Assembly (NCBI GenBank): GCA_913047675.1
Contig: CAJWTO010000005.1
Location: forward strand, 1 to 52,955
Direction: 5' to 3'
From: an uncultured Pseudomonadota bacterium
Lineage (GTDB): Bacteria > Pseudomonadota > Gammaproteobacteria > Ga0077536
Length of the DNA: 52,955 bases
Part shown: positions 21,097 to 21,657 of the stretch, piece after piece
How the letters are laid out: each line of letters begins with the position of its first letter
Position numbering within the stretch: the first letter of the stretch is position 1
The notes under the pieces: model-generated
Seen by the model: the letters and a program-made list of their open reading frames with translations, nothing else
Databases searched by the model: none
What the model was told of the DNA's origin: nothing
Position numbers and translations under genes: made by a program

Positions 21097-21657
21097 CTAG
21101 GCAAGCCCCTCTGACGCCAAGTAAGATTTAGTATCCGTATCTACATCAGTCTTGAACGTAGCGTGCACTCGATTCACCATTGCAGAGAGCCCGACAGTCA
21201 TTGAAAGTTCAACAATCTGTTCCTGACTAAAATACTTGTCTAGGCGCGCATACATTTCGTCGCTAACGACATTATTCATCGTTAATTGCTCTGAATACTC
21301 TATAACACAAAGATCGGCTTCACTAAATGAGTCACACATCTTTGTGTCGCCCATACTGCGCAATTCATTTTCTGTGAGTCCGACGCTCCGACCGAGCATC
21401 ATGTGTGTAGGTATTCAGTAGTGGCAATCGTTTACCTGGCTTGCCCTTAGATAAGCCAACTCTCTGTGTCGCGGCAATAGCTCAGGCTCTGCGTAAAGCG
21501 CCTCTGCGATTAGTAAAAAACCTGATGCAGCTTTTGGGTTGTTTGCCCACAATTTGAACACGTTCAGCAATGTGAAACCCAATTTTTCCATACGGAGAAA
21601 CATTTCGCGAATATCGTCATTCGCCAGATCTGGCTCTACCAGTGAGATCCTAGACAT
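21097..21657 (-). CDS. AhpD/carboxymuconolactone-decarboxylase-like protein with in-frame UGA (putative selenocysteine, CHYU = CxxU motif)
   Basis: Track ORFs 21415..21672 and 21097..21402 are in the same frame, separated only by TGA at 21415-21417. The read-through RELAYLRASQVNDCHY(U)IPTH...GLTENE...EQIVELSMTVG forms a complete CMD/AhpD fold of 186 aa from ATG 21657 (GGAG upstream). A SECIS-like hairpin follows. Alternative: nonsense pseudogene or sequencing error. Confidence 0.75.
21382..21400 (-). promoter_or_regulatory. Putative bacterial SECIS hairpin GAUGCUC-GGUCG-GAGCGUC
   Basis: 7-bp stem (one GU pair, extendable by a further UG pair) with a G-first apical loop containing GGUC. The stem starts 15 nt and the loop 22 nt after the UGA. 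Confidence 0.65.

Follow-up and report, generated by a model that had tools for sequence, protein, structure and literature searches.

A gene on the minus strand of a 52,955-nt stretch of DNA from an uncultured Pseudomonadota bacterium (contig CAJWTO010000005.1 of assembly GCA_913047675.1; hereafter the window) most probably encodes one 186-residue protein of the AhpD/CMD fold, in which selenocysteine (Sec) is inserted at the in-frame UGA of codon 81. Judging from the sequence and its relatives, we put the probability of this reading at about 93%. Coordinates refer to the window unless another contig is named. The gene occupies 21097–21657 as a single frame of 186 sense codons, which opens with ATG at 21657 and closes with a TAG stop at 21097–21099. 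The codons around the internal stop, GAT TGC CAC TAC TGA ATA CCT ACA CAC, read D-C-H-Y-stop-I-P-T-H and are preceded by N. Under translation table 11 the gene is split into two in-frame open reading frames (ORFs), one at 21415–21672 (ATG at 21657, 80 aa) and one at 21097–21402 (101 aa). An initial annotation of this stretch had read the same codons and had taken the two ORFs as one 186-aa CMD/AhpD protein free of any other lesion. Both statements were confirmed: the TGA at codon 81 (21415–21417) is the single internal stop, and the Pfam CMD domain extends across the junction. A homologous M-[S/A]-R-I forms the start in all orthologues. The features of the gene are listed below.

21097..21657, minus strand: complete predicted selenoprotein gene (frame, Pfam CMD, TIGR00778, orthologues, ratio of nonsynonymous to synonymous substitution rates (dN/dS), fold)
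21667..21670, minus strand: GGAG Shine-Dalgarno-like motif, 9 nt 5' of the ATG at 21657 (read from the sequence)
21460..21462, minus strand: Glu66 codon, 12 residues before Cys78 (invariant in orthologues)
21424..21426, minus strand: Cys78 codon TGC, first residue of the predicted CxxU redox pair (invariant in 14/14 aligned orthologues)
21415..21417, minus strand: in-frame TGA (UGA), codon 81, predicted to be read as Sec (sole internal stop; TGA column of orthologues; Cys homologues)
21403..21405, minus strand: His85 codon CAC, the His of CxxUxxxH, 3' of the UGA and 5' of the next ATG (invariant; CAT/CAC synonymous variation)

Protein family and position of the internal stop

The Pfam CMD model (PF02627) matched residues 41–100, thereby spanning the stop, with 44 bits (cut-off, 23), and TIGR00778, the NCBIfam model of the AhpD core domain, scored 33.8 bits (cut-off, 27.8). 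In an exhaustive HMMER scan over 1.84 billion representatives, uninterrupted full-length homologues were found only at ≤38% identity. Among 114 such full-length homologues, the column corresponding to codon 81 contained Cys in 64 and Glu in 37, the Glu forms belonging mostly to a branch without the first Cys, and Trp was never found there. The C78 column was Cys in 78 of the 114 proteins and the H85 column was His in 97. The initial annotation had placed the stop at the second Cys of CxxC...H and had proposed that homologues be compared at this column. The TGA indeed aligned to that Cys in Cys-type homologues, and orthologues always had TGA where distant homologues had Cys. The closest full-length homologue (P0030, 37% identity) reads C-H-Y-C-I-P-T-H, and the predicted Sec of the window protein forms with it a classical Sec/Cys pair.

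An AlphaFold2 model built with 14 orthologues was all-helical (predicted local distance difference test score, 89; predicted template-modelling score, 0.83) and placed U81 at the N-terminus of helix 81–91. Foldseek searches matched exclusively CMD/AhpD structures, with template-modelling (TM) scores of 0.77–0.81 for Bmp8 debrominase, 0.74 for Deinococcus radiodurans AhpD, 0.68–0.72 for Mlr4105, and 0.63–0.66 for PA0269/AhpD. Sequence-profile matches in the PDB were all CxxC proteins (Atu0492, PA0269, and Mlr4105). E66, C78, U81, and H85 were invariant, and their spacing, E-x11-C-x-x-C-x-x-x-H, was as in AhpD. The nucleophile of Mycobacterium tuberculosis AhpD is the second Cys, whose proton relay consists of a Glu and a His; we take Glu66 to occupy the place of the relay Glu in enzymes of the AhpD type. 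The gene product is thus predicted, from sequence and model together, to be an AhpD/CMD-superfamily protein with a CHYU motif.

Cysteines outside the motif were also observed. Cys108 was nearly invariant among orthologues. A comparison of loci L018–L042 revealed a conserved C-terminal Cys motif, (A/V)C-P-[IL]-G-R or C-L-L-P-A-R, in most clades; the clade of the window is without this motif and ends in ASEGLA (21097–21130). Cys108 and the clade-variable C-terminal Cys may serve as additional resolving cysteines or as partners.

Conservation of the TGA and coding constraint on both sides

The orthologue DNA set consisted of the loci of protein-cluster relatives, nine loci from metagenome-assembled genomes (MAGs) or single-amplified genomes, and loci from the relatives of the window's organism, giving 21 distinct nucleotide sequences with identities down to approximately 40–50%. 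The TGA was present at the same column in 21/21 of these, within C-H-Y-U-I-P-T-H, and the position of the stop is therefore not a matter of chance. A survey of 41 related genomes yielded 16 copies with the TGA column at E ≤ 1e-44 (approximately 40–99% identity), distributed over 11 genera of one gammaproteobacterial family. Fifteen of these copies had one TGA and were intact, and one, in relative G008, was decayed. Stop-free matches in the same 41 genomes were mostly paralogues at ≤30% identity; no stop-free orthologue above 30% identity was found among them, and no orthologue carried TGY at the Sec codon.

A nonsense mutation or a miscalled base in an ordinary CxxC AhpD-like gene would also leave an in-frame TGA, and the source is a MAG of 138 contigs and 88% completeness. 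Moreover, a truly decayed copy does exist: the G008 locus (L047; C1:1317878–1318414, minus strand, in a 4.7-Mb genome) kept the Sec-TGA (CHY-stop-TPTH) and had two more in-frame stops, and it is apparently a decayed pseudogene, despite the presence of selA in G008. However, the decay marks of this copy were absent from the window gene, TGY was never found at the codon in orthologues, and the identical TGA column recurred in 21 distinct sequences that came from independent samples and assemblers. Since more than 20 independent assemblies carry the same TGA, a base-call error is very unlikely. On this sequence conservation, an origin by mutation or miscalling appears effectively refuted, and we consider its probability negligible.

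Coding constraint was assessed on both sides of the TGA, as the initial annotation had suggested. The dN/dS ratio (Nei-Gojobori, close pairs) was 0.02–0.22 for codons 1–80 and 0.05–0.16 from codon 82 to the end, indicating purifying selection on both sides and, downstream of the stop, values far below 1 that are not those of a pseudogene. In the four codons that follow the UGA (I82-P83-T84-H85), the amino acids were invariant and the codons drifted synonymously (ATA/ATC/ATT, CCT/CCC/CCG, ACN, and CAT/CAC), with a normalised codon entropy of 0.66–0.99. Such synonymous-only variation is to be expected only where ribosomes pass the UGA and read on in this frame.

Public protein collections contain only part of the gene. 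Among 5.8 billion protein clusters, 27 relatives were found, all of 102–108 aa and all starting at query M86/M87, that is, C-terminal fragments. As 27/27 clusters were of this kind, the gene is systematically miscalled as two ORFs, which bears out the expectation of the initial annotation that standard pipelines would call two fragments.

Two biases were noted immediately beside the UGA. The Tyr80 codon (21418–21420), just 5' of it, was TAC in 20/21 orthologues, with a normalised entropy of 0.28 compared to approximately 0.9 for other two-fold codons. In nearly all orthologues the UGA was followed by A; the two most divergent ones had C there. Both may reflect a codon-context constraint on Sec insertion.

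A candidate bacterial SECIS hairpin downstream of the UGA

A hairpin resembling the apical part of a bacterial Sec insertion sequence (bSECIS) was found directly after the UGA; it is an addition to what the initial annotation had claimed.

21381..21401, minus strand: candidate bSECIS apical hairpin, U GAUGCUC [GGUCG] GAGCGUC G (fold, frozen codons, covariation, published model)

The hairpin starts 17 nt after the U of the UGA and comprises 7 Watson-Crick or wobble pairs plus a closing U.G pair (−11.3 kcal/mol), with the 5-nt loop GGUCG at 21389–21393. The published bacterial SECIS model has an apical loop of 3–9 nt, an upper stem of 4–16 bp, at least one G in loop positions 1–2, and a UGA-to-loop spacing of 16–37 nt (PMC13188914). 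The hairpin agrees with the model in every respect, with a loop of 5 nt that opens with GG, a stem of 7–8 bp, and a spacing of 21 nt.

Comparison of the orthologues revealed constraint on this RNA. The minimum-energy fold was the same hairpin in 17/19 variants, and the other two favoured a competing fold. Across the 21 sequences, which differ greatly in GC content, synonymous sites were frozen at codons +7 (Leu, CTC in 21/21), +8 (Gly, GGT in 20/20), +10 (Ser, AGC or AGT only), and +11 (Val, GTC in 21/21), and these codons coincide exactly with the hairpin. Mean normalised codon entropy was 0.50 for codons +1 to +14 compared to approximately 0.86 for other conserved codons (Mann-Whitney p = 0.003). 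In a 17-sequence alignment, 99.2% of the stem cells were paired, compared to 18–50% when the partner strand was slid by 1–3 columns. Two more divergent loci (L046 and L048) had the stem altered on both strands with the loop GGUC kept. One pair had changed on both sides from G:C/G:U to C:G, and others from U.G to U:A and from U:A to U.G, through coupled residue changes (Met to Ile with Ser to Gly or Arg). The paired-cell fraction and the covariation score were reached by just 3/500 shuffles. A conserved lower SECIS stem was also considered and was rejected, as the minimum-energy folds of the orthologues differed and none was common to them.

These observations also bear on whether the two ORFs could be two proteins, namely an 80-aa N-terminal peptide ending at the UGA and a 100-aa C-terminal part starting from the ATG of M87, which would assemble non-covalently. 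Against two proteins stands the SECIS-type hairpin built from the frozen synonymous sites. The four residues between the UGA and M87 also argue for continuous translation: they are invariant with synonymous-only change, and they include the His of the catalytic motif. It is true that the M87 ATG, 15 nt 3' of the UGA, is invariant, and that public gene callers annotate exactly two pieces in 27/27 clusters and in the fetched loci; however, no Shine-Dalgarno motif was evident in the invariant nucleotides before M87. Some termination at the UGA would in general accompany inefficient Sec insertion. The Cys homologues are single chains, and the gene was found solely in selA-bearing genomes (described below). 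We therefore regard a split gene as very improbable and one continuous Sec-containing chain as the better explanation.

Selenocysteine machinery in the genome

The genome of the window is a MAG of 2.15 Mb in 138 contigs, with a GC content of 43.6% and a completeness of approximately 88%. The initial annotation had proposed a search for selA, selB, selC, and selD, and all four were found.

C58:12706-12795: tRNA-Sec (selC), Rfam 70 bits against a cut-off of 47; aragorn SeC(tca)
C58:8108-9454: selA, 565 bits, over the curated cut-off
C58:9502-11391: selB, 419 bits, over the curated cut-off
C17:5609-6529, minus strand: selD, 291 bits, over the curated cut-off (locus L015)

The first three genes lie together on contig C58, and selD lies on C17. 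The selD match is located within a 745-aa frame, whose N-terminal half resembles a domain of the pyridine-nucleotide-disulfide/NADH-dehydrogenase type and whose C-terminal half, SelD itself, has a CGGC motif. The frame is a predicted Ndh-SelD fusion, a type already noted in the Global Ocean Sampling (GOS) selenoproteome (PMC2398784).

selA was present in 16/16 genomes that hold the TGA orthologue; none of the 4 family members without selA has this orthologue, nor does any of the 16 outgroup genomes. Within the family, this co-occurrence had a hypergeometric p of approximately 0.01, a value confounded by phylogeny. Two relatives were observed to differ in the arrangement or state of selA. In G015 (C37:4027-4566 and 4715-6064; L032), the CHYU-IPTH gene and selA share a strand, the former lying directly upstream at a distance of approximately 100–150 nt. 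In G003 (C7:13313-14227), the selA match was partial (model positions 43–347) and contained TAG and TAA, and the TGA orthologue was intact and 91% identical; the state of selA in G003 reflects either an assembly problem or a very recent loss of the Sec machinery.

The data demand that the UGA be read through, and near-cognate or suppressor decoding, or a lineage-wide reassignment of TGA, could in principle insert Trp or Cys. It is also generally known that the Sec machinery can insert Cys under selenium limitation. TGA, however, is an ordinary stop in this genome, where it terminates 307 of 1148 ORFs of at least 250 aa (27%), which excludes a reassigned genetic code. The residue aligned with the UGA in homologues is Cys and never Trp, and the dedicated SECIS-type hairpin and strict selA co-occurrence point to SelB-dependent decoding. 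Insertion of an amino acid other than Sec thus has only a slight chance of being correct.

Some results weigh against Sec decoding and against the assignment of the protein to known selenoproteins. Covariation in the hairpin was thin, with one doubly changed pair in two related sequences, and the number of doubly changed pairs was not significant compared to shuffles (119/500). Single-sequence fold z-scores were weak (−1.2 for 43 nt and +0.3 for 63 nt), so that the case for the SECIS rests on comparative evidence. Three curated NCBIfam models did not reach their cut-offs with the window protein: TIGR01926 (57.1 bits against 81.8), NF053654, YciW-related (seleno)protein (58 bits against 310), and NF041238, AhpD-related (seleno)protein of the CFYUT type (18.4 bits against 175; the motif here is CHYUI). 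For TIGR01926, all 14 orthologues were below the cut-off too, with a best E-value of 1.8e-17. Taken together with these points, the conserved TGA, the sel genes, the purifying selection, and the bSECIS hairpin strongly support the proposal of the initial annotation that the UGA is recoded as Sec.

Other TGA-bearing genes

Several other genes with in-frame TGA were observed. In the genome of the window, two SelW-like genes (TIGR02174; L057 and L058) had an in-frame TGA in CxxU, at C2:52228-52425 (minus strand) and C7:18344-18547 (plus strand). The RNA after their UGA (GCACUCCGUGUGAG) was unlike the GGUCG hairpin of the AhpD-like gene. Ten matches of the AhpC-TSA family exceeded the cut-off in this genome, and four of them contained one in-frame TGA (C48:5424-5789, C17:4992-5429, C23:1673-2068, and C14:12325-12564), the one on C17 adjoining selD. 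From their sequences, these four genes probably encode peroxiredoxin (Prx) or Prx-like selenoproteins. A second group of CMD paralogues was found in seven relatives (L050–L056 in G008, G012, G013, G018, G020, G021, and G023); its in-frame TGA, conserved within N-G-C-P-F-U-[VIL]-D-I-N-S, is followed by a hairpin region particular to the group, UUCGUUCCGUGCGAUCGAA. No TGA-bearing copy of this N-G-C-P-F-U paralogue was seen in the window's genome.

Gene neighbourhood

The predicted selenoprotein gene is the last of a co-oriented trio, in which it follows an AcuI-like and a FadB-like gene, and it faces a convergent gene downstream.

23857..24852, minus strand: MDR-type zinc-ADH-family reductase (AcuI-like), first gene of the apparent three-gene unit; also in L017
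21701..23788, minus strand: FadB-like fused enoyl-CoA hydratase/3-hydroxyacyl-CoA dehydrogenase, upstream and co-oriented with a 43-nt gap; also in L017 and L039
19381..21072, plus strand: acyl-CoA synthetase (AMP-binding), convergent, ending 24 nt from the stop of the selenoprotein gene; also in L017 and L039

Promoter and terminator predictions at the locus gave none above the shuffled background. In other lineages the neighbours were an enoyl-CoA hydratase (L040), an acyl-CoA dehydrogenase (L018 and L021), a LysR gene (L019), a cation-efflux protein (L023), a glyoxalase (L041 and L042), and selA (G015). A conserved operon was rejected, as the FadB-like/AcuI-like context was confined to the window's genus and close relatives (the window, L017, and L039). 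Because the neighbours vary between lineages, no firm functional conclusion can be drawn from the context, and the recurrent acyl-CoA enzymes beside the gene are a hint. No ahpC gene adjoined the selenoprotein gene. AhpF was not found in the genome, the best match being TrxB-like with 231 bits against a cut-off of 502.9.

Proposed mechanism and implications

We infer actual selenium incorporation, the catalytic cycle, and the substrate as follows. The hairpin, with its stem of 7–8 bp and its GGUCG loop, would act as a bSECIS and, when the ribosome arrives at the UGA, recruit SelB carrying Sec-tRNA(Sec). The genome's own selA, selB, and selC, together with the Ndh-SelD fusion, should be able to supply Sec-tRNA(Sec). 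In the folded protein, Sec81 would stand where the AhpD signature E...CxxC...H (here E66, C78, U81, and H85) has its second Cys, the nucleophile. Its low-pKa selenolate may attack an oxidised substrate; candidates are the sulfenate or disulfide form of a peroxiredoxin and, by direct reaction, a hydroperoxide. Cys78 would then resolve the adduct to an intramolecular selenenylsulfide, to be re-reduced by a cellular thiol system. The many predicted peroxiredoxin-family genes in a genome without AhpF are compatible with, though not specific to, such an AhpD-like reductant role.

No Cys orthologue above approximately 40% identity was found in the whole gammaproteobacterial family, which suggests a real catalytic advantage of Sec at this site. 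The always-Sec clade and the acyl-CoA neighbours in several lineages also raise the thought that the protein might not be an AhpC reductase. The CHYU-IPTH clade could instead reduce small molecules in a selenium-dependent way, with hydroperoxides of lipids or acyl groups or reactive enoyl/acrylyl thioester adducts as examples of substrates, or be a reductive dehalogenase like Bmp8. We consider this rather unlikely; if true, the CMD fold would include a further, distinct enzymatic function.

The gene matters mainly for annotation, since it is miscalled as two ORFs and is missed by the curated NCBIfam seleno-AhpD models. A model of the CHYU-IPTH subfamily would recover the predicted selenoprotein across many genera of one marine family of gammaproteobacteria. 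With the SelW-like genes, several Prx-like TGA genes, and the Ndh-SelD fusion, it adds to the picture of a heavy investment in selenium by small marine genomes (approximately 2 Mb). It further offers a clean teaching case, in which a conserved UGA, a Sec/Cys pair, a predicted SECIS whose synonymous sites are frozen, and a relative's decayed copy can be seen together.

Comparison with known systems

The candidate hairpin resembles the bSECIS of the Escherichia coli fdhF type in that it lies directly 3' of the UGA within the coding sequence and has a small apical loop. The fdhF loop contains GGUC, as does the loop found here. The window hairpin differs from the fdhF type in its stem sequence, no bulged U is evident, and its lower stem is poorly defined and unconserved.

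Among solved structures, the CxxC AhpD-like proteins (PA0269, 2ijc/2o4d/7xw1; Atu0492, 2gmy; Mlr4105, 3c1l; D. radiodurans AhpD, 6k40) share with the window protein the all-helical CMD fold (TM 0.63–0.76) and the E-x11-CxxC-xxx-H spacing. They have Cys where the window protein has the predicted Sec, and their identity to it is 15–28%. The partners of M. tuberculosis AhpD are AhpC with lipoamide/DlaT. The best structural match was the bromopyrrole debrominase Bmp8 (6ohi/6ohj), a marine bacterial protein of the CMD fold, at TM 0.77–0.81 over 184–187 columns. Debromination by Bmp8 is thiol-dependent. Its identity to the window protein is just 15–18%, and no gene cluster of the bmp type turned up in the windows that were inspected. 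The likeness to Bmp8 is one of fold level and gives no indication of function.

That CxxU selenoproteins of the AhpD-like and CMD kinds are known from marine surveys, as the initial annotation stated, is borne out by two papers. In the Sargasso Sea, 27 CxxU sequences were assigned to 'AhpD-like' (COG2128) and 4 to 'CMD domain-containing' (PF02627) (Zhang, Fomenko & Gladyshev 2005, PMC1088965). In the GOS data, 'AhpD-like 1' ranked fourth in abundance among the selenoprotein families (299 sequences), and 70 sequences were assigned to 'AhpD-like 2' (Zhang & Gladyshev 2008, PMC2398784). A 2026 review lists AhpD-like/CMD selenoproteins under TIGR01926, PF02627, NF041238, and NF041047, of which TIGR01926 corresponds to the published AhpD-like family (PMC13188914).

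The window protein shares with this published AhpD-like family (COG2128/TIGR01926) the superfamily, a CxxU motif (C-H-Y-U in many members), the predicted Sec at the position of the second Cys, a bSECIS right after the UGA, and an origin in marine bacterioplankton. The published proteins read CHYU-MVHH or CHYU-IIHH ... YYAYVNRLADGLG, whereas the window protein reads CHYU-IPTH and was 25% identical to one published example. The published CMD selenoprotein ('AhpD-like 2') was the better of the two examples compared, with 29% identity over 154 residues (E = 2e-16). It resembles the window protein in being detected by Pfam CMD only, in its CxxU followed by xxH/N..LGR..G, and in a C-terminal EEQIVE.S...G....NR block. 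It differs in its CAYU-TSHN motif, a 20-residue insertion, and a longer C-terminus, and by sequence the window protein is predicted to belong to a different subfamily. The strings CHYUIPTH, UIPTH, VNRVHATF, and ELAYLRAS were absent from the 2005 and 2008 selenoproteome supplements, one GOS file of which was covered in part, so that their absence is unproven.

The CHYU-IPTH group is an uncurated subfamily of an established and abundant kind of marine selenoprotein. What is new here is limited to this uncurated subfamily and its gene neighbourhood, the level of subfamily and context at which the initial annotation had placed the novelty.

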